The position numbers were made by a program, and so were the translations under genes. A stretch of DNA of 56,543 nt, filler included, from Fonticula-like sp. SCN 57-25 (lineage: Eukaryota): assembly GCA_001724245.1 (NCBI GenBank). It is 4 parts of 4 records of this genome, joined end to end, with 100 filler letters (N's around TTAATTAATTAA, not from the genome) between each part and the next. Parts side by side here need not be neighbours in the genome. Positions count along the whole stretch, not along the records: positions 42,608 to 56,543 come from MEDX01000166.1; 3 more parts are not named here. The stretch is one strand, 5' to 3'. This document shows positions 2,299 to 56,543 of the stretch, one piece after another (position 1 is the first letter of the stretch; each line of letters opens with the position of its first letter). The notes beneath the pieces are model-generated. The model did not search any database. It worked only from the letters and a program-made list of their open reading frames with translations, and had not been told where the DNA came from.

Positions 2299-5200
2299 CT
2301 AGCCAAGCTTAAATCTACCGCTGGTGAGTTTCATCTGACCAGACTGGAACCACGCGAACGGGTCCCGGATGGGAATCACTTGGCCTGCTTTAGGGACGAT
2401 AATGAGAAGCAGATACTTTTCCCCTTGAGTGCGAGCAATTTCAATCTGCGCGCCCGACCACGCAAATGAATTTCCCGATGTCGTCACCTTGACTTCCACA
2501 ATGCACTCCAGTTTGTCGTCTTGCGAGTATACGAGGATATCATGAGAGTGATTGTTGCCGCCTGTTCCTAAAATTCTCGATTGCGGAAACATTTCGGGAA
2601 GAATTGTCTCGAGTGCATACTCTTCTCCCCACGCGCCAACAATTTGCGCCAGACTACTACTGCTCTGGTGCACACTACCTGCGGTATACCTGACATTTGC
2701 TGGCTGGCCCTCTGGCTTTCGCAAGGTAGGGGGACGACCGCCGACATATTTGGAAGAGAAAGCAAACGGCCTCGGTGTCGGGTTTGACGTTGCGCCGAAT
2801 TGAAACGTCGCCGACGTCGATGGAGCAAGGCTCGGTGGAGCCACAATCGCAAATGAACGTTGAAACATGCTCACATCAACGTTATCGAAAGTATACTCTT
2901 CCCACTCGTCGCTCTGCCTAGGCGCGACATCCGGTTGCTGCGCAGAAAGTGCTCGTGGCGACGCCCCCAAAGACAACGCTCCTACAGCAGCGCTCAACGA
3001 CGACACGCTAACGCCGCTGTGGGTCGATCGAGAGGCTTGCTGGGAGCCGCCGCCGCCACCGTTCCTGCTGACGCCACTCCAACCGTTTCCACCGCGTCCC
3101 CGTGCCTTTTTACTATTACTAGACCGCTGCCCACCCAGCGGATGATATGGGCTAGGTGTCGGCCAAGAGACTTCCTCAAACATCTGCCTCTGGGGTTGAT
3201 GCTCCTGCTGGGACCAAGGCTGATGCTGCTGGGGCTGAGGGCGTTGTTGGGGCTGCTGGTGTTGTGGCCGATGCTGGGGCCGGGGCCGATGCCGGTGACC
3301 CTGAGGAGCACGCTCTTGATACATATCTTGAACCCACTGGGGCTTGGGCGCAGTTGCCGGGCTTTCAGTGTGCTGCGGCGCCATCACGGCTGGTGAGGGC
3401 CATGTAATGGCGTCGGGTTCAGGGATCAGTTGGCGCGCGTCCGGGTTCGTATATATCGCTTCTTCGGTCGGCCTCGTCTCGATTCCCTCGGCAGCCCCTA
3501 CGGGCTGACCTTTGCGGACCGCTGGTGAGCTCTCTGCCATTGACTGCGGCTGCTTCAAAGACTCGGGCTCTGGCGGCGAGGTTTCAGTCGTTGGTGGCGG
3601 CGCATCACTCATTGGTGGCGACGCAGTTGTGCCATCTTGCGTTTCGGGCAATCCTTCTAAAGCTGCTGCTGACAGCGCGTTCTTCGCGTTCTTCTTGGAC
3701 CTTGATCCACGCGCAGCCGACCTTAATAATATCTTAACAACCCTCTCCACTTGTTCCTGAATCAAATTCAAAGGAGAATCTTTCAAGTCTATCGCCTGAT
3801 TAAACCACCTAACTACCTCTCTCCTAAAAGACGCTCTCACTTCTTCTGTCACCGGCATATCTGGTGTCTCCGACATGTCCGACGGCAATGACGGCGCCTT
3901 CAATGCAAGAATTCGCTCCGCTAATTCAAATGCCGCAGCATCCTCATCGTCGCGCGCAACAACTAGACGATTGTGGGGCGAGTTCGACGGCATGGATAGA
4001 GCATCGCCGGGCTCCGTGCCGCGACACTCAACCGAAAGAGGTTTGAAATCCATTGGCAATGACCGCCCCAATTGTTCATACTCTGAGATGAAAGACTCTG
4101 ATGGCAGCAGTCGACTCGATTCGACAAACGTCAATGACCCGATGCCGTCGTACGTCACAACACGGCTCAGCTCGTCGCACTCGACAAGCTCGGTAGACTT
4201 GAACAAGCTCACAACGCGCGCGACATCGGGGAACCAAGTGGATGCCAAAGCCTCCAGGATCCTCGCAAGGTGATCACTGATAAATAGCGAGGGCCAGCTG
4301 GGATCGTCGAATGGAACAATGCTAAGAGAACCGTCAAGAATGAGCCGCTCCTTTGCAGGAACCTTGTCCAAAGCGATAGCACCGAGGAAGGAAGAGAGCA
4401 AATCCGGCAAATGACCAATAGTGATTCCCAAAATGAACCGCTTCGCATCGGAAGCCTCCTTAAAAGACTTGGCATTATGGTCCGCTTCAGAGCCAATAAC
4501 AAGGCGATCGACCGACACGAAACGGCGACAGCCAAGCGTAGGGAAACAAAGCGGAGAAGTCTGCATACGCGAAGACGCCTTTTTCACTTCCTCATCGCCC
4601 GCCTTTGCAGCAAGCCACGTAAAAAAATTATAGATAAAGTCAACGAGGACGGAATATAGCACCTTTGGGTGGTCCGCTCTCATCTTTGCAACCCAAACGT
4701 TTGCCTCTTGCGCCAAGAGCCGCAGCGCTTTAATAAAGCACGACGAAGGAAGAGGTTTCCTTTCGGCAATATTTAAGTAACTCGCCACCATGGATGCACT
4801 CTTGAGGGAAAGACCCGCGCTCGATGCCGACGCGCCCCAATTGATATCACTCGAGGCGCGCCAAAGAAGACTCCTCGCAAATTCCTTCCTCCTCGACTGT
4901 GCGACATCCGCCAATCCATCCGATGTCGATGAAGAGGAAGAAGGCTCATAGACGTCGGGGAGGCTATACGGGCTCAACATCCACATAACCGAGTGCGGCG
5001 CCGGCAAACCAACCCAAGCATCGTTGTGCACAATACACACTTGGTTTAACGGCCGCTTCTCATCCACAAGGGCCGCGACAATCCCCCACACCACCGAGGC
5101 AACAGGCCCTGACGGGTTGGGGTACCGCGACCGCAGTTTACTCAATATGGCCAAAAATGTCTCGGTGGAGGGCTTGGCCTTGAGCGGATTTAGCGAGGTC

Positions 5201-8200
5201 AAGGAGACATAGTACTTGTGCGCCGTTCGCCACAGATTGGAAGGGCAGACCTCCTTCATGACCTCCTCCAAAACGCGGCCAATCTTTTTTCTTTCTTCTG
5301 TAGCCGTTTTCTTCTCCTCGAGAGTATCCTCAGGGTACTCGAGATTGCGCGTAATCTCGTCCTTGAGCCCGTCCTCGTTAATCCAAACGGCCGTTGCTGG
5401 TTTGATCCATTCCTGTCGATGATAGACAAACGGCCACGAAGAGGCATACGTGTCGGAGACTTTGATGAGCTTCCACGACACCTCTTCAATATCCTCGGGA
5501 GTAAACATATCTTGGGCATTCGTCGTCCGCAGGCGCTCCACCAGCAATTGGTACATCTTAATGATGGGCCCCGGCCTGGCAGGAGCGTGAAAAAAGAACG
5601 ACTCAACTCTTTTAGCCCCACTATCATCGTTCTTGTAGCGATCCTTAATTATGGTGGGCATATTGCGCCGGCAAAGCCACTGAAACACCTTGCGGCTCGA
5701 GTTGGATTTCAAATCATCCTCGATTTTTTGAACTTGATCCGCGGCGATGTTCGTCGTTTCGCCCCACGAAATGGCGGTGTTGGAAAGGATGAGCAACTTG
5801 TTATCAACGAACTTGGAGCAAAGAAGCTGACATATTTCTCCATTAAAGTTGTTACCGATATGCGCATAAAGTTGCCACGCGATGGCCGATATGGCGGGCA
5901 GGTCGGCGCCATCCTCCTGTGTCTTGTTATAGAGGGACGTGAGCAACTCTTCAAGGACGATAGTCTCGCTCGTGGGTATCACATGCTTGCCACTCTTGAC
6001 GAGGATCTCAATACCTTCGCGGCAGCGCTCCACAGACTCGCGGCTCATCATAAAGATATTTTTCTTCGCGTATAGCTCGTGATAGATATTCAGCAAATCA
6101 ACCTGGGTATCACCGAATTTCAACTGGGCCGAATCAAACGCACACAGCTTGCCGAGTGCCAGCCACTGTCCATCAAACGGCACACACATGTCCTTCAGCG
6201 ACTCTTTGTAGTCTTCAGACAAGACTTCATGGATTAGACTCCAAATGAACGTCTCAACGCTGCTAATTTCCGTTGTGGCATCGCTTGACACTGAAATGTT
6301 CTCAGCAACGAAGCCCCACAAAGTGAGCAGTTGCGATTGTGAAATGTCACTCATGCTGGCACACACACGGCGTAGCAGATCGTCCTTATCAGGGCCAAGC
6401 ATGCCGCGCGTCCACAGAACGATGGGGCAGGACTCAGTGGTTAACATATGGTCCCACAAGGCATGCTGATAAAATACCCTGTCTGGCGGGAGAAGAATAC
6501 TATCATCAAACCGCAATAACGTCCGGTCGCTGCCGACGGGCACGAGTGCGTTTTCGGAAAGACAGTCGAGCACTGCTTGACAGGCGTCCGAATACGTTTC
6601 ATCCGACGTGAACGACTTTAGCCTGTTGTGCAGCACCTTGACAAGCCTGTCAACCACGTCGAAGTTGGTCGCGTTCTCCTGCCAGCATTTCAACAGAACT
6701 GAAACGCAGTCCATCAGAGAGAGTTTCGACCATGCAGGTACCCCAACAACCGTGGGCGAGACTGAACCGAAATACTCGTAATACGGTAGGGGAAGCATTT
6801 GGGAAGCGGCAGACGAATCAGAAAACACAGCGTTGGGGCCGTAGATCGGCGCAAACGCTGCAGCAAGGTCGCTGTTTGCGTCCAGATGCAAAAGCGAACG
6901 AGGTGAGTGAAGCGTCGCGTTGTCGCCCTGGCGCAAAATCCAAGGCAATTCCGCCCACGCGGCGATAATTTGTTTGTCTGACGTCGCTGACTTCTCCGCT
7001 ACCCACGACACGAGTTTTCCAAAGGTACCGCGGTCGACCGACTTCTCAGAGAGAAAGGGAAAGAGCTCCGTTGGTTGGTTATTCGCAAACACGCCCGGCT
7101 TACCGTCATACGGGAGAATCGTCCCAAAGAGATAATTTGCCAATGCAAGCATGTCGGTCTGACGGTGCTTCCGCCAACCATTCTCACTCACATCAAGATA
7201 GTCCGAGTGCAGAACAAACTTTTTAAAGTGAGCAGAGGCAGCGCTCGCCTTGCCGTACTTTGGGGCGGGCCAGTCAAACAAATCCTGGTAGGTGGAACAC
7301 ACATTGACCGGGCGCATCACAGCATACGTGCCAGACACCACAACGGGTTCGCAGCCACGATTCAGGTACAGCTTGCGCTCAACTCCTTTGTTCAAAATCG
7401 GCTTCAAGTCGACGCCACCGCTCTCGTCGCAGCACACAGTGTGGAGCGCGTCGTTCACGAGCTTGATCAAGACGGTGCCGGAGCACGGGAGAGGGTTTCG
7501 CTGCAGGACGTCCTTGAGGTACGAAACGCGGTCAAAGCGCTTTGCAAATCCAGCGCGCTGCAGCCAGGCAGCAACAGACCCCGCGTTGATGCCCTCAGCA
7601 GCCTCAAGAAGTTTCCAAAACTTGGCGTCCACGACGTGACGAACGGGTGCCAAAATGAGACCCTCCTTATCAAACGCCCTGTCCTGGTCGTTGCAAAGAA
7701 GATGAACGACCGCCGCGTATGAGCGGACGCCGCCACACGTCGTGGGCAGCCACCGACAATCCTTGGCAAGCACCTGACGCCCCACTTCAACGTTTAGCAA
7801 CGCTGCATCGCGCACAGCTTGGATCAAGCGGACACGCCATTCATCAGTGTGCCTTGGCAAGGCAATCCACTCGCTCTTGCTCAGCACAGAAACCCAATCG
7901 CTCACTCCCCATTCTCTCAGTTGCTTCAAAACCAACTGCGGGAGGATCTGTCGCTTTGCTTGATGGGCGCTGAGCATGTCCGAGTGCGCAAATGACTTGG
8001 CCACAACTTCATTCTCGCCGCGAAACAGGTCGCAGACTTTCTTCGGAGCAATCATCACGTCTGACAGCAAACGCAGATTAGACGAAGCATCGCACGGCAC
8101 CCACGCAAGCTTCACCAGCATTTCGGCCAGGGCGTCCAGCCTCGAATTCAGAAAGGCATGCGAGCCCGCCATCGGAAATGCTCCCAGCACGAGCTCGAGG

Positions 8201-9620
8201 CGCGTCTCCATCGCGATGTCAGCAAGGTCCTCGTGTGGCGACGCAATCAGGGCGTCGGCAAGCGCACGAAAAGCGATCGAGTAGGCGTGAATAAGCGCTG
8301 TCTGAAGAAGGAAAGCGTTCCGCGGCTTGTTCGGGTCGAGCGACTCGCGAGACGTCACCAGGGAAAATCCCGCGTTCACCAGCGCAGGCCAGTTGGTGTT
8401 CCCCATCCCGGTCGGGAGGTAAGTGTAGATGCGCCCCGTCGTCCGCAACGCGCGCTGCGTCGCAGTATTGAGTGGTAGAGCAATGCCAATGGGCGTCCCC
8501 TGCGACGCCGGGACTTCGCGGTCGCTCTGCTGGTCGCGCTCAGCGTCCAGGACGTCCTTGGGGATCCCATAGTGGTACTCGGCGAGCAGCCAGTGTGACG
8601 ATCGCCGCGCCTCTGATTGAGAGTCGCATCCAATGAGCTCGATAAGCTTGGCGCCAAAGTGGTGCAGGAGCGGCGCAGGGGACGGATACGCGAGCGGCAG
8701 CGCGGCGTCCAGCTCGCCCAGCAGCGAAAGAGGCGTCAGATCCTGGATCTCGTAGCTCGCGTGCCACGGATCGCCGTTTGCAACAAGGATGTGCGTGTTG
8801 ATCGAGCGCACTTTGCGGAGAAAGATAATCATTGTGTCCGTTTCAATGCTCTCGCGAAGGGACGCTGAGACGACGTCGTAGACCTGCGCGGTAGCGAGCG
8901 GGAGCACAAGGATGGTGCCGTGCCCGTCGTCGGGCGAGAGGGCGCCGCCGCTGATGGACGAAACCGCATCACGCGCCCAGGCAGCCGCAGTAGGGTCGTC
9001 CACCCAGTACGGCGTCACAACGTGCAGAGGATTCTCGGCAGACTTGGGCTTGAACCGGAAGCGGAAATGACGGGAAAAGATATGCGGCGACGACACATGG
9101 CCAAACATCGATTTGAAGCCAATGCCCTTCTCGCCCGTCGACGAACGCATCGAGTACTGGGCGCGGTCGCCGAGTGTCCCAGTGTGCTCGGTGAACTGGT
9201 TAGTCTTGGACGACACAGCACTTCGGCACAGGCTTTCCACATCTCGAGCCGCAAATCCGGCCTCGTCAGACGCGGCGATCAGCACACCAAATGGGCTCTT
9301 GATCGTCTCTGGCGCATCCGCAAGCATAGGGTGGTCAAAAGGGATCAGCGCGAAAAAGGCATGAACGCTGTCGCTACCTGCTCGCACAGTGTAAGCAGAC
9401 GACAACGGCAAACGCGGGTGGAATGCGCACCGGGGCGACTCAGTGCGTCATCCATGTTTTGAAGAAGCTCGCAGAATATGCGCGACGCTCCAGAGTACTG
9501 GTCAGAAGAAATAAGCTTAAGCATTGGGCCGAGCGTCTCGAACGCGACGCCCTGCCGACTCACGACCTCGAGCCATTGCCTTGTAAGCTCATCTACAGTG
9601 TCCTTCTCAGCCACACTCAT
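2299..9620 (-). CDS. ~2420-aa NO VEIN/sacsin-like GHKL ATPase with C-terminal DUF3883 (PD-(D/E)xK-like) domain
   Basis: Exon 1 (9431-9620) carries IFCELLQNMDDA. A 53-nt GTGCGC...CTTAC...GCAG intron (9378-9430) joins it in frame to a 7-kb exon carrying GFAARDVESLC and TGEKGIGFKS. The C-terminus GAWGEEYA...HDILV...VEVKVT matches the DUF3883/NOV_C pattern. Confidence 0.8.
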
Positions 9621-42607: not shown

Positions 42608-43274
42608 ATTTGATCTTTAGTTTGCAGTTTAGTTTGCAGTTTCTTGCATGAAGCAATGGCGTCATTCTTACGTGTGGCCAGACGGTGGCCTGACGCCTTA
42701 TGACCAAAGGAGATCAAGCCATGCGTCGGAGCCCAGGTCAAACCTGGCTCCTCTCTGTGTTCATTGGTCAGTGTAGAATTGTTATCCATATTTGGGAGGA
42801 GTATATATATTGGCTGCATGCCACAATAAAACTGCTTTTCCCCAGTGTCACAGAAGAAATGATTTGATTCGGACCTGAGTCGCGATTAAGCGATTGAATA
42901 TGCGCCAATTGTCCAAACACAAAACACAGTCGGGAGACCGTTACCTATTAATATTACTGTACGCTGATTCACGAGCAGTGGACTGGTTAGAGGACCTGCG
43001 GAGATCCCTGTGGTGGTCATCACTTTTTGTCGGCTCCTCAATCCTGCAACTCGCCATTACCGCCCGGGTTTTATGTGGATTTACCGAAAACGTGTGTGGA
43101 TTTACCGTCACCCATTACATGGCCTAAACATTCCTAATGGTGAAACACAGTTATAGTTGAACAAGCATTTGTGTAGAAAACGGCGTAGACGAACAAACAT
43201 TTGAGGAGATGATTTAGTCACGAGAACGCAAGAGAAGGAGAATACAGTAGGGGCTATAATTTATTACTAGAATT

Positions 43275-43800
43275 TCAAAACGATAACACACGCCATTTCG
43301 AGCAATGGCAGACGGCGTCGTCGAAGCGCCATTCAAGGTAGCAGACAATCTGCGCGCCGGCCAGAAACATGATCAATCATCATGAACGACTTTTAGGTGA
43401 TAACGTAGAAGAGTACTAAACGAACAGCGTGGGAGCAGCGGTCGGATCCCTCGTTTTCAGGGCGTTCCTCAGGAGAGGCCGGCGAAAAAGCCGCTGTCTC
43501 AGTGGCACCGTCATCCTCGCGCACTACGGTGACGTCAAACTTGTTCAGAGGAACAGCCACGGGCTCCCCGTTTGAATCCCCAATGAAGACGTCAAGCTCG
43601 TTGCCGGCAGCGGCCAGATGCGCCGTCAGCTTGAGCACCAGATCAGAGCCGGTCACCTGGGCACGAAGCAGCTTGCTGTCGTCGAGCGCACTATGGGAGT
43701 GGCCGTGTCCGGCATGGGAGTGGCCGTGCCCGCCATGCAGTGACAACAACAACGTGGGAACAGGTTTGTGAGACTTGCGTGTCCATTTTGATTGGTGCAT
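43275..43800 (-). CDS. Small His-rich putative metal-binding protein (start and 3' exon uncertain, possibly decayed)
   Basis: HGGHGHSHAGHGHSH is followed by a globular beta-rich segment GNELDVF...PVAVP...ERP...CSH. Possible intron 43350-43425. Confidence 0.5.
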
Positions 43801-43812
43801 CCAGTTCACCTT

Positions 43813-43840
43813 ACTGTGGTTGTCGTGCTGTGGTTGTCGT
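43813..43840 (+). promoter_or_regulatory. Tandem GCTGTGGTT-type element pair in the divergent His-protein/ABC promoter
   Basis: CTGTGGTTGTCGT occurs twice, 14 bp apart. Exact GCTGTGGTT at 43827-43835 and a one-mismatch copy at 43813-43821. Confidence 0.65.
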
Positions 43841-43884
43841 ACCATTTTGTTGCAGCATCTCCCAGGGTCCCCACGTCGCACGCC

Positions 43885-45982
43885 ATGGCCCACCGGCGCC
43901 TTCGCGACGAGGATGACGTCCTGCTTGAGAAGGGCTATGGTTCGCCCAACGACGACGACGACGGCGGCAGTCATGGCCAAGGCCACGGGCACAGTCATGG
44001 TGCTACGGCGGCGCTCGCAGTCTTTGGCCGCCTGCGCGACTCGAGTGGGCCGCTGCGGCGCTTGGCGGCGCTCGCGCGCGCTGAGTGGTCGTGGATGCTT
44101 TCGGGTGCCATCGCGCTCGTGCTCGCCACCAGCATCAACGTGTTTATGCCGTACTCACTAGGCTACATCCTCAACGACGCGGCGGCGGAAGGGTCGTTTA
44201 CTGCCGTTACCAAGGTCATCGTCATTTTCCTCGGAGTTTACATACTAGGATCCGCTTTAACAGCTATGCGTGTGTACTGCTTGACGATGGCAGGCGAGCG
44301 CGTCGTGAGGACGTTGCGCTTGCGTCTGTACGCGAAGCTTCTTCAGCAACCGGTGTCCTTCTTTGACGCGGCCCACTCGGGCGAGCTCGTCAGTCGCCTC
44401 GCGACCGATTGCGAGCTGATTCGGTTGGTGCGACACAGTTGGCATTGGTTTGCAACTCTGACTCACTTTCATGCAGACGCTAACAAACACGGTTGCTGTC
44501 ATGGTGCGTTTTGGCATCCAGGTCATCGGCGGCACCATGTTTCTCTTTTGGCTGAGCTGGAGCTTGACACTGGTCATGCTGTCCGTTGTGCCCCTGCTTG
44601 GCATCGCTGGTTTCCTCTACTCGCGGCGTGCCCGCAGCCTTGGCCGCGACCTCCAGGACGACCTCGCCACCAACGCGGCGCTTGCCGGCGAGGTGTTGGG
44701 CAACATGCGGCACGTCCGCGTCTTCGACGCCGAGGCGCGAGAGAGATCGAGGTCCGTGCATATTTTTGCTATTATTCTTTCTTACAAAAAATTTCTCACA
44801 GGTACTTGACACGGCTTGACTGGACTTATGGAGTCGCCCGCAAGCTCGGTATTTTGAACGCCTTCTTCATGGGAGGGACGGAACTTGGTACGTACATTGC
44901 CGTGCTCGGAGTCATTTTGTACGCAACGTACCTACTGACCGTGGGCCGCCTTAACATCGACTTCGTTAGTGCGTACATGTGCGCGTTTTTGCTCCTGTCT
45001 AACCGTGTGTTTTGTTTATCAGCGTCGTTCGTGCTGTATGCCGTTTACGTGTCCCATGCCCTTGGCGCCCTGTCGCATCAAGGCACGGAGCTCGCGCGCG
45101 CGGCCGGCGCCTCCGAGCGCATTTTTGAACTGCTCGACCGCATGTCTGGCACATCTGCGGAGCCGCTCAGCGAGCCGGCAGGCCCTGTGCTTCGTGGCGA
45201 TATCGAATTTCGAAATGTTACCTTTGAGTACCCTGCACGGCCGAACGAAAAGTCGGCCGGTTCTGTGCTGCGTCGGCTCTCATTCAAAGTGCACTCCGGA
45301 CAGACTGTGGGTGTTGTTGGCGCCTCGGGTGCTGGCAAGAGCAGCATTTTGCAGCTTATCCCCCGCCTCTACGACATCAACGATGGCTCTATCTTGATTG
45401 ATGGCAAGTCGCTCCACTCGTACGACCCGCGGTGGCTGCGGCGTCAAATGGGCTTTGTCATGCAAGAACCCATCGTGTTCCACGACACCATCGCTGCTAG
45501 TACGCAAACAACCCCCTTTTTTTCACATGCTCATTCACACGCACCTGCCAGACATTCGCTACGGTCGCCCTGATGCGAGCGACGAGGAGGTGATGGCAGC
45601 CGCCAAGGAGGCACTCATCCACGACACCATCATGGAATTTCCAAACGGCTACAACACCGTGGTCGGTGATCGCGGCGCCGGACTCAGCGGCGGACAGAAA
45701 CAGCGTGTCGCCATTGCTCGCGTTTTCCTCATGGACGCTCGTATCGTTCTCATGGATGAACCCACGTCAGCACTCGACACCGCCAACGAGGCGCTGGTGG
45801 CGCAGGCGGTGCAACGCCTCTACCAAGGCCGCACCTGCCTCGTCGTGACGCACACTAGTGATCTGCTCCGTGCTGCGGACAGCGTTCTAGTGATGGCAGG
45901 TGGCAGCTGCGAAGCACACGGCACAATTCCAGAACTGCGTGCGAGTTCGGTATCCTTCCAGCGTCTTTTCCCATCTGTTTAG
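43885..45982 (+). CDS. ABCB (TAP/MDL-like) half-transporter with His-rich N-terminus, apparently intact
   Basis: SHGQGHGHSHG, TMD with FFDAAHSGELVSRL, Walker A GASGAGKS, LSGGQKQR, Walker B LMDEPTSALD and H-loop. The frame is restored by short GT-AG introns (e.g. 44428-44476, ~45500-45552). Confidence 0.9.
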
Positions 45983-46511
45983 CAATCATTCATTAATATT
46001 TAGTTGCGCAAAGCTATGCTACCATCAATACGAATGCTTGTTGCACTCATAGTCCGTGCAAATTTGCTGAAAAGTCAGTAAAGTATCCACGATTTAGCCG
46101 ATACTTGTTCAAAATAATTGAAAAATCAACATTAACATTGACGTTTCTTTCATGCAAAATAATACATACGTATTTTTCAAAAATTTGAATTCATCTACAA
46201 TTACAGTCACTCTCAAAGTAACGCCCCCCTCCCTCTCATTTCCACGTTGACCGTCCGGCTTAGAGCGTCTGCGGTGGTAACTGCATGCATCATTGTGCCA
46301 AAGCGGCAGCGCGGGTCCGCCGTCTCGCAAGCGTGTGGACGTCCTCAACATCCTTGTAAATGTAGACGATCACGTTTTCAGATTTGCCCCTGCCTGATCC
46401 CGATGTCGATGTGGCCGGTGCGAAGGCGTTTGCGGCTGACTGCAACCAGCTTGAGGCACATCATCCGTGCGGCAAAGTTGCTGTCAAGGGCCGCTGCATC
46501 GCCATCAGAAG

Positions 46512-47528
46512 ATGCGCTTCTCAAAGCGGGCCGAGATCTTGGCACTGAACGCACGGACACTCGACGCGCGACATTGGCCGGCACTCCGACAGGTTGGCAG
46601 GGACCGTCGCAGTGTGCATCGCTTCCTTCAGACGTTTGCAGGAAGAGCTCTGCTACAAGACTGCAGGCGCCGGGGACGTCGCCCCATACTGGCTTGCCGG
46701 AACGAGCCTAGAGTGAGGCGCGCGATCATGAAAGGCGAGTGCGACACGGCCGTGCAAGTCGCGCGGCAGGCTCAACCTCCGGCTGCCGCGCGTGTCTGAC
46801 TCGACCGTGCGACACGCCATAAGGAGGCAAGGATTGCAGGCCCGGGTCAAACGCGCCGTCCTGCTCCTCACGTCCCGTCACAAGGTACTTAGGCTGGTAT
46901 GGGCACGGAGGCAACGGTACTGGTCGCCGAGTGACTGGGTACGGGTCATATTTTCGCACAAGGCCAAGATTATACTAGTGAGTTCCGCTGGGCGTACCTG
47001 GTGCTGGCGAGGCCCCGGCTGCAATCCCTTCGAGCAGGTCAAGCCTAGGCTGAAATTTGGCGGTGGCTCGCTAATGGTCTTGGGGTGCATGTCAGCGCGA
47101 GGGGTGGGCAACCTGTGTCGTATATTCCCTACTGTGACGGCCGACGTGTACATGGAAATCCTGGAACGGCACATGCTTCCCTCACGGGCCTGGTTGCTGC
47201 CCCACGCGAGGGCACCCTTCGTGTTTCAGCAGGACAACGACGCCAAGCACACATGCACTGCGACCGCCGAGTGGCTCGGCGCGAACCACGTGGACGTGCT
47301 GGCTTGGCCGCCGCTAAGTCCCGACCTAAACCCTCTGGAGTTATTTGGGCCGTGTTCAAGAGAACAGTGCGGGAGGGCGCAGCGATCACCGGCATCGAGG
47401 ACCTCCGGGAACGCATGAAGGCCGAGCGGTGGGCGATCGAAGCCGGGCTGTGCGCACGGTTGGTCGCCTCAAGGCCTGACCGCGTGCGCGCCGTCATCGC
47501 GGCAAGGGGCGGCTACACCAAGTACTAT
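46512..47528 (+). mobile_element. Tc1-family (DD34E) transposase relic
   Basis: HTH region GRRP...STVRHAIRRQGL, then KFGGGSLMV.GC, FQQDNDAKH, WPPLSPDLNPLE and VIAARGGYTKY. The first catalytic Asp is replaced (IFSHKAK) and there are at least two frameshifts. No intact TIR pair found. Confidence 0.9.
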
Positions 47529-48067
47529 TGTGCAGACAGTGATATGTTACGCTCACTGAACGCACTCTGTGGTGGCTCCAATGGCAAAAATCGCGTTACT
47601 AGTAAAACGCAACAGAGCGTTTAAGTCGTGACCCAGCCGAGCGATGCAACTCTATGCACGTCCCTTTCATGTGGATTGCAGCAAGGATGTGCCCTTATAG
47701 GAATGCTTAAGGCATGCGCATCATGGGCGAGACATATTTTGATTTTATCGACAATGCGGGGACAATACTTATGTGATGATGAGAGTCCCTCTATGACGGG
47801 ATTTGAGAATCTATCGCAAGGATGTTCAGTAGGGTAGCGGCGCGGTTGCAACAATCCGCGACAGCTCGGCGCACCTACGTATCGGTTAGTATTATTACTG
47901 GATTTAATAATATTGTTTGGCTTTCTTAGTATTGCTATTGGATTTGCTGATTATAAAAGCAGTATCAAGCGCCTACATACAACAAATCAAAAAACAACAA
48001 TAGAAGGTGATGAATATGGAAAGAAAGAAGGAAACACGTACGAGTGCTTCCTCAAGCCACAGAATAA

Positions 48068-48682
48068 TCAGTCGTTGAGTTGGTTAGCCAATTGATCTAG
48101 AACCAAGGACGCAGATGTGAGGAGGCTAAGTTGACAAGGCATGGAACCCAATTTCGAATACTGTTGGCAATCGCATCCGTCGACTGGCGAGTCAAGAGGA
48201 ACTGAAATCACTTGGTGAGGGGACTCGACTGGCGAGTCAAGAGGAACTGGAATCACTTGGTGAGGGGACTCGACCGCTGGGGCTTTATGTTGCTGCTGGA
48301 GAAGCTGTTCAAGGGATGCAATGTAACTTTCCTGTTCCGACACTTTTGAGCGTAATTTGTCGAGTTCAAGTAGAATTGGTGACGAGTGTTCCGGCCGCGT
48401 GCCCATCGAATTGTGCCGCTCATGCGAGCGTTTGTGGCGATGCAGGTCGTAAGACTGCACAAAACGTTTCCCACAGTCAGTGCATGCATGAGTAAAAACT
48501 TGCCGATGAAACCGGTCGTGTCGATCCAGCGCGTCCTTCCGACTGAACACCATCGTGCATTCCAAAAATTCGCAAGCGTACGGTTTTCTGTCAGCGTGGG
48601 TACGACGGTGGCGGGCAAAACCAGCCTTGGAGAATACCAACTTGCATGTGCTGCATTGACGACCCTTCCCTTCAAGGTCCAT
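48068..48682 (-). CDS. Three-finger C2H2 transcription factor with coiled coil and C-terminal Cys motif, intact and intronless
   Basis: Fingers CSTC..HRRTH, CEFLEC..HDRFH and CTDC..HKRSH with a KPYAC linker. Heptad region ELDKLRSKVSEQESYIASLEQLL and tail GCDCQ...PC. Confidence 0.88.
   Translation of the reverse strand: MDLEGKGRQCSTCKLVFSKAGFARHRRTHADRKPYACEFLECTMVFSRKDALDRHDRFHRQVFTHACTDCGKRFVQSYDLHRHKRSHERHNSMGTRPEHSSPILLELDKLRSKVSEQESYIASLEQLLQQQHKAPAVESPHQVIPVPLDSPVESPHQVISVPLDSPVDGCDCQQYSKLGSMPCQLSLLTSASLVLDQLANQLND
48180..48269. repeat. In-frame 45-nt tandem duplication within the ZnF gene (VESPHQVIxVPLDSP x2)
   Basis: Units 48180-48224 and 48225-48269 differ at one base. Confidence 0.95.
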
Positions 48683-48829
48683 GTTGACGACGCGTGCAAA
48701 ATCGTTCAAGGCTAGAATTGGCAATGCTTGGCAGGGCAGTACCGGCAATTAGTAATCAGTGCGTCAAGCACTTTCTCCGATCTGTACGCCACCTTGCGAG
48801 ATTGGAAATATGGATGGTCGTTAAGGCGC

Positions 48830-48962
48830 TCAACCACAGGTCAGCGTGCTGTGGTTGACGCTGAGCGTCCACGTCACTGATGACGTCATTTATGATGACT
48901 TCACCACAGCACAACCACAGCACAACCACAGCACGAACCACAGCACAGCTGACAACTACAGC
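48830..48962. promoter_or_regulatory. AACCACAGC/GCTGTGGTT cluster plus CRE palindrome in the divergent ZnF/P1B-ATPase promoter
   Basis: Exact copies at 48848 (reverse orientation), 48913, 48924 and 48936. One-mismatch copies at 48832, 48902 and 48954. ATGACGTCAT palindrome at 48880-48889. Confidence 0.75.
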
Positions 48963-49006
48963 ACGAAACTATTCCTCCGCATTGTCGCGGTGGTACCACA
49001 AGGCGC

Positions 49007-51500
49007 ATGGAGGGCTCTTAAACTGCAGTGACAGTATCAGAAGGGCCGCCGGAGCCCCTGGTAGCCAGCGGCTCTGTGAAAGTGCGACTAGCTGTTTGAA
49101 GTCAGTGTCGCTAATTTTGCTATCATTAGTGCAACGGAGATGGATGCTGCAAGACAGCTCAGAAGACCAGCATAGCAAGCACTGGGACTGTTAAACCGGT
49201 TACTGAGCCAGACACAGCCTTGGAAGATAGCGCGGCACCAGTGGATCCTGTCCCAACCAAGGTACGGCACTATTTGTATCGGCACCACCCATGCCAACAA
49301 TCTTTGTTATTTTATATCAATTCTCGTTGTGCAGAAGTGCAAAGGGAGTGCATGTTGCTCCAAGACTGTTGCTAAGAGAAGCATGGAGGGTGCACTTGCT
49401 GTTGGATCGGAGATGTTTGACACGAAGGATGCCATCGCGGAGCCAAGGGTGCTGCAAGGCAGCTGAGCGGAGCAGCATGGCTATCGATTTGGATGTTAAA
49501 CCGTTGAGTGAGCCAGAAGCATTTGCCCGACGGAACCAGTGGATCCTATCCCGACCAAGGTGCGGCACCGTTTGCATCGGCGCGACCCTTATTTAACAAT
49601 GATTTATTATATTTGTGTGCAGAAGTGTAAAGGGGGTGCATGCTGCTCCAAGACTCCCGCCAAAAGCAGTGTGGAGGGCGCTCCGGCTGTTGGACCGGAG
49701 ATGACCGACAAGAAGAATGCCATCATGGAGTCAAAGGTATGCGTGCTCGCACACTCCCATTGCATTCTCATGGCAAATAGAGTTGCAGTGACTAGCCATG
49801 CTGTACGAAAAATATTGTCTATCCTGCGGCGAAAACAATACTCCCGGCGAGCAGACAGGAGGACACTCCCTCTACCGACAACGCTACGAAGGCTGTCGCA
49901 GTTGTTGTTAGCCTGCTCTGCAGACGTCCTGGTCGGCTCAAACAACCGCCGTCCAACCTGCGGAGCGCGCCACGACAGAGGCTCGCGTTTCTTTTCATTC
50001 TTTTTTTGTTATAATCAAACAATAAATGACACGGGTTTTGTTTTAGGCGTGTATGAAGCCTTGCTGTGATAGAAATGCGGCTACTCTTCCGAGTCAGGTG
50101 ACCCCATTGAAGCAGCGTATCAAATGCTGCGCACAGTGCTGGTCACGTCAAGTGGCGTGCTGCAAGGTAGCGTGCTGCTCTGCTCTCTGCTGCGTGACTC
50201 AGTTGGCGTTTCCTGAGCCAGCCACATCCAGATCGTTCATCCAGCATGTGCAAGAGTTGTTCACGCGACAGTCCCGCGATGCCTCGTACACAGATGTGGA
50301 GATGAACGATGTGGGGGTGAAGGGCGAGCCTTGTGCAGTCTGGTTTTGTCGCCGAGGGAATTGACTGCGCCGACTGCGCCAACACCGTGCGTGATGCGCT
50401 CTTGCGCGAGCCTGGTGTCCGAGACGCCGTCGTCTCTGCTCTGACCGGCAAGGTGAGCGTGATGTACGATGGTAGTTTGTATTCTGACGACAAGGTGCTC
50501 GAGACTCTGAATCGCATTGGACTCAAAGGGCCAGCTTACGGGCATGGCTGTTATCATGCTCAAGCTCCGCGGGCAGCCAACGCTGGACGTGGTGCCAAGG
50601 CAATAGTGCTTTGCGCGACGCAAATGGCAATCCCGCGGACCAGCGCATCACGGTGGATTCCAAGGTTACCCCGCGCCTGCTTCGCGTCGAGTTTGACGCT
50701 CGCATGTTTGGTCCTCGTATGATCCTGGAGATGCTGCAGCGTGAGGGCATTGACTGCGAATTGAGCGACGACAACGAGGCTGCAGAGCATCCCGCGCAAA
50801 ACGAAGTGCATCGCTGGCAGCGGTCGACACTCCTCTCGCTGTTGTTTGCAATTCCCGTGTTTTTGGTTGCGTTCGTGCTGCCAAGCTGCGGGGAGGCCGT
50901 GAACGAGACGGTCAACAGGGCAGTGGGCCACGGCTTGTCCTTGTCCACACTGCTTATGCGTGTGGGTTTTTGCCACGCCCATCCAGTTTTACTGTGCGCG
51001 ACAACTTCACGGCTCGGCCTATCGTTCGTTGCGCTACTTGAAGCGGCCGAATATGGACGTGCTCGTGGTGCTCAGCTCGCTTGTCGGCTACGTCTACTCT
51101 GTCATTGTTGTGTTTGTGGCACTCGGTGGCGGCTTACAAGAAACTGGCGAGACCTTTTTTACGGCCTCCGCATTGTTGCTTGCATTAAATGCCGTTCTTC
51201 CTGACACACGAACGGGATGCCGCCTTCTCCTGTCGGGCGCGAAGCTTACACAACGAATCAACGTTTAGCGCCTTGAGATCGGACGTTACCATATCGGTGG
51301 AATATGTAGAGAGGGGACACCTCGGTTGTTATGCAGTAGGTGCTGGACGGCGGTCGGGGTTGTCAACGACAACTTGCGCAGTGTGACTATGGCAGACATC
51401 AGAATTCAATTAGATTTTTCTTGTTATCTGTAAACGGGGCGGTTGCGGGTAAAGAGAAAGACAATGTATTGAGAGACAATCAGCGTGGCCAACGGGCCCC
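49007..51500 (+). pseudogene. Heavy-metal P1B-type ATPase with Cys-rich N-terminus, disrupted and truncated in the actuator domain
   Basis: Repeated C-x4-CC exons, a CC-rich block (~50053-50200), HMA GIDCADC (~50357) and TM motifs FATPIQFY, PNMDVLVVL and FFTASALL. Stops at 49019 (TAA) and 49793 (TAG), plus several frameshifts. No CPC or DKTGT downstream. Confidence 0.85.
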
Positions 51501-54500
51501 ACGCACCAATCACAAGAGGGATACAACAATCCGGATCGAACACTATAGTCACCATACAACAACATACAATCAACATCCTTACAGTACACTACTCCTCTCA
51601 ATTAATTTTTCTTTCTCTTGTTGTGTTCACGACGTCTACCAGAATACACCAAAATATACAAACAAACACGATTCACAAATACGAGGTCACTACTCACAAG
51701 AATAACATCACTAATACAATAATAATATCTACTTCACAAATATAAGGTCACAAAATATAATATCACTACCTCTTCCCCCTTCCTTAATCGTGTGTGCTCT
51801 GCTTCCTCATATGCACGGATCAAGTCTGCGCTGACTTCCCCATGTGTCCGAATCATTGATCGTCCGCGACTCCGTATCCTTGCCACCGCACCAGATTCTG
51901 TGGCCACCTTCCAACGTGCCGACAATCGAGAATGCGCTCGACGGTATACTGCTGGTCGTCCGCGTCAATGGGGCCAGGGTCCAACTGATTCGATACGCCG
52001 CGTCGTTCGCGGTCACGCGTGCTTCAGACAGCGGCGCTGCGCGGTCGGTCAGAGAAGGTTCCATTTCAGGGTCGAAATCATCGCCGTCATCCAGTCGGGG
52101 AACATCGCGCGGCCTCACTGTACTTTCGTGAGTGTCGGCTTGCACTACGCGCAGACGCGATGCGTCCTAGATCAAAGTGCAGCGTTGTCGCAACCGACTG
52201 GTTCGACTCCCTGGAATGGTCATAACGCGCGACTAGAGTGTCGGCTTCTCCTGGGACTTTAGAGCATTCAGGCGCCGCGCATGAATGCGACATGGAGGTG
52301 CGCGGCCGACGCCACGCGCGTCGAAAGCACACGTATATAGAAATGCCGATGAGTACGCCGCTTATTCTGGCGCGCGTTCGATTGACTACCGCACCCACCG
52401 TGCTTGATGAGGCGAGGCCAAGCGTGGCAGCGTGTTCGCCGTCGGGTTTCCACACATCACTGAAAGGAGGGCATGAGGATGCTTACGTTTCGAGTCGGAA
52501 TCGAATTTGGAGTCGATATGCTGTAGTCGCGCGAAAGAAGATAGCACATCGTAGGTTCCGCGCGAAGCGTACCACATTCCAATGCAAAGCTGGCCAGGTC
52601 AAGTAAAGCCTACACAGCCACCCTTTATGTCGACACGCATTAGGGTAAGGGGGGATGTTGCAGCCGCAGCAATGTCAGCGGCACGCAGTCAGAGTGACGG
52701 TGACGCAGAGCGCTCGCTAGCATCTCCAGTAACAGGAATAATTGGTCATACGACTCGCACAAGTCGGACCGAGCGGCTTTTCTGGCGTGACAAGCACACT
52801 GGTCTGCTTTGGGAAGAATGAAAGGCACACACCGTACTGAAGCTGGTGGTACATGTAGACGGTCCCAATATGGAGTGAAATGAGCTTCAAGTACAAATTT
52901 TCCACAGGGACGATGAGCAGGGCGCACGTCGAGGGAAAGAAACGCGAACATGGCAGTCTTGCCCCCGCCATTTTCCTCAACTACAACGACGAACAGCGGA
53001 GTGCAAAAAGGGATTCCGCTTGAACACCACGAAACTCAGTTGAAGGCAGCTTGCAGAACAGCGGTGTTGCTCCAGCCGCCGCGACTCTGACGAACATCGA
53101 GCAGTTTGCTCGGGTGGCAACACCACCAATATTTCCCACAGTGTCTGTCAGGTGACAAGAAAAACTCCCAGTGGGAGACAGCGTGAAAAACGAAAATGAA
53201 TTGCCATATATGGTCGTGGTGGCCACGATTAATGAAGCGAAGGATTGGTTAACGTAGTCGGAGGATTGAAAAAATAAATACAAATTGGACGACATTGATC
53301 TAATGAAGAACCAGCAGACGCAGGAGAGAGAGAGAGGGAGGAAAACAGGTACAAAATGAAAGTGAGGAAACATTGAAGGAAGCTGAAGAGAAGTATGAGC
53401 AAAAAAAGAACGATCAAAGCAAAGGAAGGACACATTATAGTAGCACGATCTCTTCATGGCTTAGTTAAGAGCGTCGAGTCTAGATTCTTCGTCCAAAGGA
53501 GCAATGCATTGAGCAATTTCCCACGAAACGCGCGGTTGCCCCAAATGATATATATGAGCCTCAAGGCGGTCTCGTGCCTCAACGAGGTACCCGTGAAGAT
53601 TCGTCGAATGATCGCCAGTTATTTTAATTCCGCAAAGCAGCTCAAAAAGTGAAACTCTGCCTTGAGCATATGCCTCCTCCCAATTTTCACCAGGGCACAA
53701 AAACTGCCCCACGTTTCGCAGCACGTCGATAACAGACGGAATTGGCGGTCGTCGAGGTACGTGTTGCAGAAACCGTCCATTAACCTGGTAGAGGTCGACG
53801 GCGGCGGGAAAAAACTCGTCGTAAGGAAGCTCACTTTTGACAGCTGATAATTGCGAGAGTAGTGCAGCTGCCCTACTTTCATCATTCAGTGGACGACCGT
53901 CGCGGCCCTCATCTATGGAGTTCGCCATGGAGCCTGATTTGCGTCGTTGTAAAAAGTCGAGCGATGCGGCAGAGAGATTACGTCATCAATGGTATAGTTT
54001 TAAACCAGACTCGCGCCAATAAGGTGTGGTGTTTCCCAGCCGTGACCAACTCAACAAAATGGCGCTCGAGCGACGCGGGTTGGAGCGTCAGGAAGCGGCA
54101 GCGCTATTCAATGGCGCCGACCACAGAGAGGTGAATTCCTCGATATGGGATTGCTTTAAAGGACGACTAACATGTCGCTGTCTGTAGGTCTCGAGGCGGC
54201 TGCGCACAGCTCACATTATGCGGTTGTGACCATCCGCCAAGTGGCCTTGCGGGGGAACCGCCGCGCATCTAGCGGCGACAATAGCAGCAGGTCATAGGCT
54301 AGAGCTCAAGGGGCGACTAGTCTAGCCCGAGATGTCTGTCCGCTTTGCCGCCGTGGATGCGGACTGTTGCCCCCCATGTGGTCGCCTCAGTTCTTTTTGC
54401 AAAATTGACTGGGGTGCCGTTCACTGTCAACCACTGAGACGTCAACCATTGTCACAAGCCTGTCACAAGGATTGCTCAGCAAGATCAACGCAAGCTCTAG

Positions 54501-54965
54501 ATCATTCTAGGACCTTTTACCCCTCTACCAATATACGCATTGTCAGCCACGCTGCTTAATAAGCAAACTTCCCCTTAGTATAATTACGTGTAGCTTTTCG
54601 GGTTCTCAGTGTTCTTCTCTCTGCAAAGGTAATAAACCTCTGACACCTTCGATATCTGAACTCCTCCCTCATCACACGGTAAAAATGATTGTACGTCATC
54701 CAAAGATCCAGCCTGCACAGATCACAGATGCGGGATCGTGTGAGCGTAAATGGATTAAAGTGGCGTACCGCTTTATTGGTCGGCTTCAAAGTTCAATCAT
54801 CAAATAGCTAAAATATATAAATATGATTTCGATGCGACCTTTTCCGGAATAATTCGGCCGTTTGAAAGTTACGTGAAAACCAAATATATTGCGGGACCTG
54901 GTTCCAGAATATATTTATGTAAGCTAGTTTTAATTCTATCCTACATGCTTGATAGTCATTGGTAA

Positions 54966-56193
54966 TTAAATCGTCGTGGCCACGATACGACGCCTGGCAC
55001 TCGTGAAAAGTGCCTGCTCCTCAGTGCAGCATTCTGCCTCGATGCACGGGACGTCCTCAACGGTACCACGGCTTCCCTCCTGGTTAGAGCGACAACGCAT
55101 GCTGCATGATACCTCATCAAGCTGATGAAACTGCGCCGCGTCTTCGACAAACTCGTGTTGCAGCGTCGCAGAATGAATACCATGCGAGTGGAACGTGTTG
55201 TGAAGTTCCTGGGAGATGCTGGGGAGACGCTCCTTGACGCATACGATGTGCGAGGACGCCACTAGCTTGTTGTCCGTCAGCTGCCACACATGCAACTCGT
55301 GAACCTGTAGCACTCCGGGCACATCGAGGAGTGCGTTCTTGAGGTCATCCAGGTCAAGGTTACTGGGAAGAGTTCCCAGCAGAATGTTAGCGGTTGCGCG
55401 CACAAGTGGCACTGAGTGGAAGAGTAGAATGCCCACGACAACCAGCGTCAAGATCGGGTCGATGTAAACCGTGCCTGGCGCGTCAACCTTCCAAATAATC
55501 GCTGCACTAACGATCACTACCACGGAGCCCAAGGCGTCACCTGCCACATGTAAAAATGCGCCCCGCATGTTGTGGTCACGTGTGGCTCGTTTTTCAGTGG
55601 CGGATGGTTGCTCGGACTCAAGGTTGGCGTGGCTGTGTCCATGACCGTTCTCGAGCTCGAAGCGGCTATGCCCATGAGAGTCCTCGAGCCCGAGTTCGCC
55701 GTGCCAATGATCATTCTCGTTATGAGTACATGAAGAAGCATCGGCTTTGCGCACAACATGGCTGTGGCCATGCCCTCCACTGTGGCTATGGCCATGACCG
55801 CCCCCGCTGCCACTCAACAGCCCCAAGCCAATGATGTTAAAGCCCAGACCAACGGCACCAACGATAAGCACGAGTTCAGGATCTTCCACTGCCTCCGGCG
55901 TGAAGAGTCGTTCGACGGCGCTCACAAATAGAGAGAAGCACAGAGCTATCAGGAGCACGCCGTTGGCAAGCGCGCCAAGAGTTTCCAAACGACGCCAGCC
56001 GTAGGTATTCCTAGCGGAGCTTTTCTTGGCAACGCGAAGTGCTGTTATGGCTGTGATCAAGGAAATCATGTCCGAAAGCAAAGGCATCCGCGACGAGGGC
56101 GTTTGACTTGCTCATAGTTCCGACAACGATTTCGACGAAGAAAAACGCGGTCGTCAGGGTTAGGGTGACCATCAGGCGCCAAGTCCGGGCCAT
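54966..56193 (-). pseudogene. ZnT1/Zrc1-like CDF zinc transporter, full length but frameshifted in TM2 (pseudogene or assembly error)
   Basis: FFFVEIVVG..SNALVADAF/LSDMISL, NTYGWRRLE.LGAL.NG, His-rich loop, NMRGAFLHVAGDALGS, VHELHVWQL, HGIHSATLQ and a Cys-rich tail. The frame breaks at 56079/56080. Confidence 0.9.
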
Positions 56194-56225
56194 GCTTGCG
56201 AAAACGGCCGTTTGCCTGCCTGTTC

Positions 56226-56403
56226 AACCACAGCCGGAGGAAATATATACAGCATGTAACACCCAACCACAGCAAGGAACCACAGCGCAACCACCGCATC
56301 GTGACAACTGAAGAAATATGACACAACCACAGCACGCCAATCAACCGCAGCACGAACCACAGCGTGACAACCACAGCGTGACAACCATAGCGGCAACCAC
56401 AGC
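56226..56403. promoter_or_regulatory. Dense AACCACAGC/GCTGTGGTT cluster directly upstream of the CDF transporter
   Basis: Exact copies at 56226, 56265, 56278, 56325, 56355, 56369 and 56395. One-mismatch copies at 56289, 56343 and 56383. All have the same orientation and begin 33 bp upstream of the ATG. Confidence 0.8.
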
Positions 56404-56543
56404 GCGAAATTTGTACTGTAGATCAGTTACACCCATTGGGAAACGTTAAGGGTAGAGTCCAGGGGGGTACTCCTCCATAATCAATAAAGTGGCTAATCAC
56501 TGTCACCCCACCGGTTGTTCTGATTCGCTGTCGGCGGTTCGGT

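Follow-up and report, generated by a model that had tools for sequence, protein, structure and literature searches.

Co-regulated clusters of unrelated stress genes are rare in eukaryotes, the known metal cases being the yeast ARR genes and the cargo of fungal Starship elements, and the locus described here raises the question of whether a protist has built a cluster of its own. The window (the whole stretch of DNA that was analyzed, 56,543 bases from Fonticula-like sp. SCN 57-25) consists of four ~14-kb contigs joined by N spacers, and the fourth of these (contig 4, 42608-56543) carries four genes of metal-handling type together with a gene for a C2H2 transcription factor. An earlier reading made from the sequence alone (the sequence-only reading) had proposed an accessory, possibly mobile metal-resistance cluster with a dedicated regulator. 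We lean towards a different account: as judged from its sequence, contig 4 would be a co-regulated and decaying metal-homeostasis neighborhood, probably of zinc type, which is tied together by a lineage-specific cis-element, the 9-mer CTGTGGTTG, and is not a mobile element. The genes and the arrays of this 9-mer are listed below by window position; CDF stands for cation diffusion facilitator.

43275-43800, minus strand: small His-rich gene (HGGHGHSHAGHGHSH...), ATG at 43800; homologous exon 43426-43800 (125 codons)
43275-43425, minus strand: decayed or re-spliced C-terminal part of the small gene; the remnant LIMFLAGAQIVCYLEWRFDDAVCHC resembles the family C-terminus
43814-43836, plus strand: motif array 1, two exact CTGTGGTTG copies with a 14-nt period, in the 84-nt spacer between the small-gene ATG (43800, minus strand) and the ABCB ATG (43885, plus strand)
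43885-45982, plus strand: ABCB half-transporter with the His-rich N-terminal tag GSHGQGHGHSHG; Pfam ABC_membrane (3e-27) and ABC_tran (3e-15)
48068-48682, minus strand: C2H2 factor of 204 aa with three N-terminal fingers, intact; zf-C2H2 (2.9e-10), ATG at 48682
48831-48961, minus strand: motif array 2, four exact (48831-48931) and two one-mismatch CTGTGGTTG copies between the regulator (minus strand) and the P1B fragment (plus strand)
49130-51187, plus strand: 5′ fragment of a P1B-type ATPase gene, pseudogene or truncated; HMA (7.9e-11, Pfam span 50321-50722)
54966-56193, minus strand: ZnT1/ZRC1-like CDF gene with a His-rich loop (GGGHGHSHSGGHGHSH...); Cation_efflux (3.1e-32) and ZT_dimer (4.8e-7), Pfam span 54966-56111
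56225-56402, minus strand: motif array 3, ten CTGTGGTTG copies in the sense direction of the CDF gene, five of them exact and five with one mismatch, 32-210 nt upstream of the CDF ATG at 56193

Promoter arrays and the cluster-borne regulator

The strongest evidence that these genes form one unit is the presence of CTGTGGTTG arrays in three promoter regions. The window contains 11 exact copies of the 9-mer and all 11 lie in the three arrays of contig 4, with none in the 42.5 kb of contigs 1-3. When up to one mismatch is allowed, the window holds 30 matches against 11.9 expected (standard deviation 3.45; at least 30 in 0 of 100 shuffles), 18 of which fall in the arrays. The shorter word TGTGGTT occurs 18 times against 5.1 expected, and 14 of these occurrences are in the same places. 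The arrays lie 14-280 nt upstream of start codons and are sense to ABCB, CDF and the regulator; in array 2, five copies run in the sense of the regulator gene, and the one at 48849 is on the plus strand. A promoter element shared by the member genes would be laid out in this way, which is the signature of a regulon. A GHGHSH-type tag is also common to the small protein, the ABCB tail and the CDF loop.

The C2H2 factor that the sequence-only reading had named is present. Its Pfam zf-C2H2 region spans 48068-48748 (minus strand), and its PDB relatives are C2H2 proteins with three or more fingers. A three-finger C2H2 protein reads about nine bases. By what we take to be the simple recognition code, the helix residues QYDR, RDAR and SAGR predict GCA-GTG-Gnn, and the observed GCT-GTG-GTT would fit six of the seven bases that this code specifies. 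The TGTGGTT core presumably resembles a Runx site and not the metal-response element (MRE) or the zinc-responsive element (ZRE). A literature search for the motif returned primers and Runx sites and nothing on metals, and one for protist metal clusters returned prokaryote work only.

Two further observations concern this part of the contig. The C2H2 coding region contains a 45-nt tandem duplication (98% identical, 48180-48274), which duplicates the peptide VESPHQVI(P/S)VPLDSP. A perfect ATGACGTCAT palindrome (48875-48884), presumably a site of the cAMP response element/bZIP type, lies between CTGTGGTTG copies about halfway along the regulator/P1B spacer.

The ABCB gene and its small His-rich partner

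The five exons of the ABCB gene (43885-44427, 44477-44751, 44802-44968, 45023-45499 and 45552-45982, from the ATG at 43885) are separated by GT..AG introns of 49, 50, 54 and 52 nt (5′ sites GTGCGA, GTCCGT, GTGCGT and GTACGC) and give a spliced model of 1893 nt, that is, 630 codons and one terminal stop in an intact frame. The splice sites were deduced from the sequence and from an intron place shared with a related contig (L056, below). The ABC_membrane and ABC_tran matches together span 43792-45982 (plus strand), and the single frame holds the transmembrane and nucleotide-binding domains of a type IV half-transporter, with the motifs GASGAGKS (Walker A), QEP, LSGGQ and DEPTS.

The best PDB relative of this protein is ABCB10 (6.7e-15). 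Among the best 60 of 92 PDB matches, ABCB10, MsbA, ABCB9, BmrA, ABCB8 and TAP2 lead, and Atm1, ABCB6 and ABCB7 do not occur. The best NCBIfam matches are TAP2 and MsbA_rel, both far under cut-off with a fragment as query, and the nearest named relatives are ~590-aa proteobacterial proteins described as “ABC transporter transmembrane domain-containing”. By these matches the predicted protein is of ABCB10/MsbA/TAP type and falls outside the Atm1/HMT1/ABCB6-7 heavy-metal clade. Unlike ABCB10 and MsbA, it bears an N-terminal GH-rich tag, which is also present in the eukaryote-like relatives P0168 and, as poly-GH, P0169 and missing from the bacterial proteins P0170 and P0173.

The small protein represents a new family, with no model in Pfam or NCBIfam. 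A phmmer search against 1.84 billion representatives gave 31 matches at E<=1e-3 (best non-self match 8.5e-17, 51% identity), and the only member with a name, from Thermogemmata, is annotated as a “hypothetical protein”. The conserved blocks are HGHSH, LTAHL, GNELDIF, PAPADERP, CSHFVAKAPW and a C-terminal W..F.P.KYAHH, of which the N-terminal set (H-rich tag, LTAHL, GNELD, ERP and CSH) is complete in 43426-43800 (minus strand). The AlphaFold model is an all-beta sandwich (pLDDT 74.8, pTM 0.61). A fold search with this model returned no PDB match at E<=0.001, and its weak top matches, DUF4426 (3.5e-3) and CrdA (E 0.054, TM score 0.55 by target), are a lead only.

GTDB genomes contain 54 loci of the family, in Planctomycetota (Schlesneria, Gemmataceae and Planctomycetaceae included), in Myxococcota and on one contig labeled Alcaligenaceae. 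The bacterial members mostly have a lipobox and the eukaryotic forms have no signal peptide. An open reading frame (ORF) of at least 1100 aa lies downstream on the same strand in eight of the 22 bacterial loci with ORFs listed, and Pfam identified a resistance-nodulation-division (RND) pump beside the family gene in L001, L018 and L058, accompanied in L001 and L058 by a CusB-type membrane fusion protein. In these three planctomycete loci (L001 5962-12492, L058 10001-16078 and L018 6001-9985) the order is small lipoprotein gene, long adaptor gene, RND pump gene; the CusB/HlyD-type adaptor is unusually long (730-790 aa), with duplicated barrel-sandwich parts.

A tree of 39 family members places the window and L056 copies as sisters (99/84). 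Its backbone is unresolved and the signal-less forms need three changes, so the tree does not show which way any transfer went. The terminal branch of the window protein is long (0.99, where its sister has 0.29), which is what relaxed constraint would produce.

One metagenome scan for related contigs returned four loci. Two of these, L056 and L057, are counted as one, since they look like a single 5.4-kb contig recovered from sibling samples. This contig encodes a His-tagged ABCB with 51% and 58% identity to the window ABCB across two exons and an intron in the matching position (after VDF), and, 120 nt downstream, an intact 154-aa member of the small family. The two genes are in tandem there and head-to-head in the window. 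Their adjacency in L056 indicates that the pair is conserved in a divergent eukaryote. L056 also encodes a permease of the CitMHS family (ion-transporter superfamily; 123-1918, plus strand) just upstream of the His-tagged ABCB, and this permease may be a further member of the module.

The best explanation of these data is that a His-tagged ABCB exporter and a putative small His/Cys binding protein of a new family make up the conserved core of the cluster. Members of the small family are found next to exporters repeatedly, in bacteria as well as in eukaryotes, which suggests a metal-handling accessory of a new type. The claim of an accessory metal cluster with its own regulator gains support from the three arrays and from the pair in a second eukaryote; that of its mobility does not.

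In the mechanism that we propose, the cluster-encoded C2H2 factor would bind (G)CTGTGGTTG sites (GCTGTGGTT), with its three fingers reading three triplets, and a rise in metal would lead it to activate both its own gene and those of the exporters. The small cytosolic His/Cys protein and the ABCB His tag would capture the metal and pass it to the exporter, and the CDF and the P1B pump would provide parallel routes of efflux or sequestration. If this is true, a protist of engineered water systems has assembled a compact metal regulon that includes a dedicated regulator and a simple, repeated 9-bp element. It would offer a testable factor/element pair and show how such a module breaks down in nature. 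More tentatively, both halves of the cluster could be new at once: a protist regulon in which a cluster-borne three-finger C2H2 factor and GCT-GTG-GTT form a new element/factor pair, and an undescribed His/Cys beta-sandwich family of bacteria and protists that acts as a metal chaperone feeding the adjoining exporter.

Lesions, assembly and competing explanations

The metal hallmarks assigned to contig 4 by the sequence-only reading (the small His-rich ORF, the His-tagged ABCB, and the HMA and CDF domains) are all there, but three of the four metal genes (P1B, CDF and the small gene) appear from their reading frames to carry disabling lesions, and the ABCB gene and the regulator alone read intact. 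This weakens the interpretation as a resistance cluster.

The CDF product has homologs of ZnT1/ZRC1 type in animals, Capsaspora and fungi (37-42% identity). Its frame is broken at 56079, where seven homologs have (D/A)SFH(M/V)L(S/N/T)D and the window has ADAF + g + LSD. The remaining sequence does not continue the reading frame of the exon for transmembrane segment 1 (TM1; MARTWRL...ALVADAF), and the His-Met of TM2 is lost; of site A, which is formed by HxxxD in TM2 and TM5, HVAGD in TM5 is kept and the TM2 His is gone. An intron across the lesion was considered and rejected, as the flanks are contiguous in the homolog alignment. A truncated 373-aa product with an internal Met start (P0001) is on record on three contigs, so the lesion is unlikely to be a one-off assembly error.

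What had been taken for a P1B ATPase is the N-terminal third of one, with a frameshift. The fragment contains Cys-rich repeats (CCSKT...), one HMA domain with the CxxC of the class (CADC), a degenerate second HMA-like stretch and transmembrane segments as far as early TM2, and no start codon was identified for it. A tblastn search with three full-length P1B ATPases (P0121-P0123) was significant only at 50966-51160, which corresponds to residues ~240-308 of ~960, and homology stops at about 51187. DKTG and GDGxND occur in none of the six frames of contig 4, TGE[SA] has two matches only (48183 and 48228, unrelated frame), and the catalytic set of DKTGT, the TGES actuator, the GDGxND hinge and CPx in TM4 was not found. 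No E1-E2_ATPase or Hydrolase family was detected by a Pfam scan of contig 4 that covered 95 of 95 ORFs of at least 70 aa at E<=0.01. The path from TM-A through TM-B to TM1 is interrupted by a 1-nt frame change at 50959, where ...LSTLLM (frame 1) is followed by c and then VWVFATPIQFY (frame 3), a place at which the homologs are continuous. Here too an intron was rejected: the site leaves no space for one, the flanks are contiguous in homologs and the only GT..AG option removes the conserved TPIQFY.

The Cys-rich P1B region also contains a tandem duplication of ~290-300 bp (49233-49450 and 49531-49738). Each unit seems to be an exon ending in ...PVDP(V/I)PTK|GT, an intron and an exon beginning KCKG.ACCSKT..., and a 7-nt length difference shifts the frame in the second copy.

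In the small gene, homology ends at CSHAV (43423) in tblastn searches with eight family members, with one high-scoring segment pair reaching 43402, and the ~47 nt that follow contain stops in two frames. The in-frame C-terminal block FVAKAPW...W..F.P.KYAHH is missing, and ...EWRFDDAVCHC is all that remains of it. A 76-nt GT..AG intron could rejoin the remnant but would remove two or three strands of the domain. The lesion is reproduced in an ENA contig (L055, 2275 nt) that matches this region with one mismatch.

The soundness of contig 4 was checked against k=31 graph contigs of the runs X1 (the probable source), X2 and X3, of which the last two gave identical figures and count as one data set. 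The features that matter for this check are the following.

42608-42850, no strand: high-copy repeat at the left contig end; word depth 74-128 in X1 against 25 for the adjoining unique piece; several variant short contigs
46163-47624, plus strand: Tc1/mariner relic; HTH_Tnp_Tc3_2 (6.7e-6) and DDE_3 (1.7e-5), together spanning 46732-47418 and both under Pfam cut-offs; ORFs in three frames
51188-53460, no strand: unassigned 2.2 kb past the ATPase break; no Pfam family at E<=0.01
56446-56543, no strand: high-copy repeat at the right contig end, part of a 5339-nt contig of depth 138 in X1

Several points weigh against a co-regulated neighborhood. The X1 contigs break contig 4 into 42766-46934 (depth 25.1), 46905-51481 (15.1) and 51452-56475 (12.2), with a first branch node at 46905-46934, in the Tc1 relic, and a second at 51452-51481, where a repeat in the unassigned stretch (51448-51587) has a second, ~90% identical copy in X1 (depth 14.6). 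In X2 a contig departs from the window past 46934. P1B homology ends only ~260 nt before the second branch, so the 3′ part of that gene might be on another path, and the physical linkage of the three pieces stands on the original assembler. The proposed fit of fingers to motif stands on the simple recognition code, the array copies are tandem and hence not independent events, the arrays could be a dispersed minisatellite, with counts that cover the 56.5-kb window only, and CTGTGGTTG is missing from L056, so that the element is not conserved there. The ABCB subfamily is one without a known metal role. Finally, in five of the seven bacterial loci of the small family scanned with Pfam (L002, L014, L017, L031, L033 and L044 among the loci concerned), the scanned gene is not an efflux gene: the neighbor is phosphoglycerate dehydrogenase in L017 and L031, and belongs to unrelated families or to none in L014, L033 and L044.

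The alternative that survives best, which we nevertheless consider unlikely, is an assembly chimera, in which pieces from the same organism and the same regulon that are not neighbors were linked by way of the Tc1 relic and the repeat at 51448-51587. The branch nodes lie exactly at both joins, the depths are unequal, the X2 contig diverges at the first join and both contig ends are high-copy repeats. However, each join involves one shared 30-mer, which ordinary reads span, and unique k-mer contigs cross most of the Tc1 relic from both sides. All three pieces are present in both independent data sets, with some depth in all 30 bins of X2/X3, and the recorded contigs with the CDF include one of 15,127 nt. 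With a single 30-mer at each join and the pieces in both data sets, the joins are probably right, and we hold this with reasonable confidence. Both the apparent truncation of P1B and the CDF linkage hang on the second join. Because motif arrays are found on all three pieces, the regulon would survive a chimera; an island would not. As a separate observation, the X2 contig that departs past 46934 continues GGGTTAGGGTTGTG..., two units of a TTAGGG-like repeat.

A little less likely again is a fully functional Zn/Cd/Cu resistance island, in which the lesions are errors or belong to one degenerate haplotype or strain and intact alleles exist in the population. The first piece has about twice the depth of the other two in X1, and there is the second copy of 51448-51587, both as two haplotypes or paralogous copies would produce; in addition, the His-rich motifs and promoter arrays remain well preserved. 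The 2:1 depth would equally fit a hemizygous or population-variable region, and the depth differences are suggestive at most. Against intact alleles, the truncated CDF product recurs on three contigs and the small-gene lesion recurs in L055, no indel variant was seen at 56079 or 50959 in the runs compared (though contigs drop rare variants), and the core domains of a P-type ATPase are nowhere on contig 4.

We regard it as improbable that the neighborhood arose by chance, with unrelated genes that happen to carry metal motifs and CTGTGGTTG arrays that are a common satellite. The motif frequency is known from the window alone, and the ABCB subfamily and the absence of the motif from L056 would both agree with chance. 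It does not account for three arrays placed at promoters with none in 42.5 kb of other contigs, for the GHGHSH-type tag in three proteins or for the conserved adjacency of the ABCB and small-protein genes.

Mobility had been raised by the sequence-only reading, which saw a possible Starship-like element, and nothing was found to support it. No tyrosine recombinase, DUF3435, integrase or intact transposase was detected among the 95 contig 4 ORFs (E<=0.01); the contig ends in repeats and a captain-type gene could lie beyond them. There are no terminal inverted or direct repeats and no target-site duplication at the contig ends. The Tc1 element is, as previously described, a relic, with weak and frame-split HTH and DDE_3 matches, no intact DDE transposase, and no pair of terminal inverted repeats reported by the repeat search. 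A 25-nt inverted repeat (88%), the only long-range one, does span 12.5 kb, from 43814-43838 to 56366-56390. It consists of the promoter motif itself, turned as the two outer genes are, and a third array lies midway. A mobile island, either Starship-like or a composite transposon with these inverted arrays as subterminal repeats, is therefore very improbable: the inverted repeat, said to enclose all genes, leaves the small gene outside its left arm, every array is just upstream of, and sense to, a start codon, and the lower GC content, the internal Tc1 relic and a depth pattern that allows presence/absence variation are what remain in its favor.

Known systems and the remainder of the window

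For the co-regulated neighborhood that we favor, the closest known system in its logic is the yeast ARR cluster and not a Starship. ARR1-ARR2-ARR3 (ACR) combines a regulator, a reductase and an exporter for arsenic resistance, and is subtelomeric and copy-number polymorphic (PMC9266342). Both are small eukaryotic sets of non-homologous genes directed at one toxic-element stress, with an activator of their own beside an exporter. They differ in that Arr1 is a bZIP protein and the factor here has three C2H2 fingers, and in that the ARR cargo is a reductase and ACR3, in place of ABCB, CDF, P1B and the small protein. Most genes are damaged here, and the cluster is known from sequence alone.

The Starship HEPHAESTUS of Paecilomyces variotii had been put forward as the main precedent; it is not the only one, and ARR is the nearer parallel. 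HEPHAESTUS carries unrelated metal-tolerance genes, including the CDF gene zrcA and the cadmium pump gene pcaA, and its defining features are a “Captain” tyrosine recombinase and termini that match the target TTAC(N7)A (PMC10104507). The likeness is that several unrelated metal-tolerance genes occur together in a eukaryote. In contrast, neither a Captain nor target-matching termini were found on contig 4. The host also differs in not being a Pezizomycotina fungus, given that WASH is present on contigs 1-3; to our knowledge, fungi lack WASH.

Metal-responsive C2H2 regulons include those of animal MTF-1 with the MRE and of yeast Zap1 with the ZRE. The arrangement on contig 4 resembles them in having a C2H2 factor and multiple short elements upstream of a ZnT/ZRC-type exporter gene and of the gene for the factor itself. 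It differs in the number of fingers (three here, six or seven there) and in the position of the regulator gene inside the cluster, with binding and metal sensing only predicted here. The window CDF shares with SLC30A1/ZnT1 and fungal ZRC1/COT1 the HxxxD of TM5, a His-rich cytosolic loop and ZT_dimer, but, unlike them, it has no TM2 His and its frame is broken such that TM1 cannot join the rest. CusF is a periplasmic metal-binding accessory of CusCBA. Like CusF and CrdA (Helicobacter pylori, PDB 9ll2 and 9ll4), the small protein is a predicted all-beta protein with His/Cys ligands, and some bacterial members of its family are encoded beside a metal efflux pump; unlike them, its eukaryotic forms are signal-less and paired with an ABC exporter, and there is no significant match in sequence or fold.

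The host is an uncultured, GC-rich, intron-poor protist of bioreactor and wastewater metagenomes, which are the sources of the public runs that contain the stretch; no RNA run is among those recorded. WASH and the best matches of the CDF and P1B sequences point to a non-fungal eukaryote, possibly a member of Amorphea. The lower GC content and sparser genes noted earlier for contig 4 are borne out: its GC is 0.533 against 0.583-0.600 for contigs 1-3, the third-position GC of its genes is also below theirs, and stop-free frames of at least 250 aa cover 24% of it against 41-82% of the others. Both of its end repeats are at 3-10 times the depth of the unique part and are unrelated to each other. 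It is likewise correct that contig 4 has no housekeeping genes, but alongside the metal genes it also holds the ~2.2 kb of unassigned sequence and an orphan ORF.

53464-53928, minus strand: orphan ORF of 155 aa; no Pfam or NCBIfam match

The best feature score of this ORF in an Atlas search was 0.79, beneath a meaningful level. The ORF at 52643-53035 (minus strand) was considered as TAL-effector-like and rejected: a 29-residue stretch (CTPLFVVVVEENGGGKTAMFAFLS...) matches PDB TAL repeats at 5e-9 over the whole chain and no single stretch passes, so this is probably a repeat-summing artifact in which one segment matches many repeats.

The genes of contigs 1-3 are of ordinary eukaryotic kinds and have long open frames, among them REV1, WASH, Nup93, KPHMT (ketopantoate hydroxymethyltransferase) and a P2-type ATPase. 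This last, on contig 2 (15690-17695, minus strand), is an intact P2-type cation ATPase (Cation_ATPase_C and Hydrolase) unrelated to the P1B fragment of contig 4. On contig 1, an unbroken frame of 2382 codons (2302-9447, minus strand) has the NO VEIN C-terminal domain (NOV_C) as its sole recognized domain.

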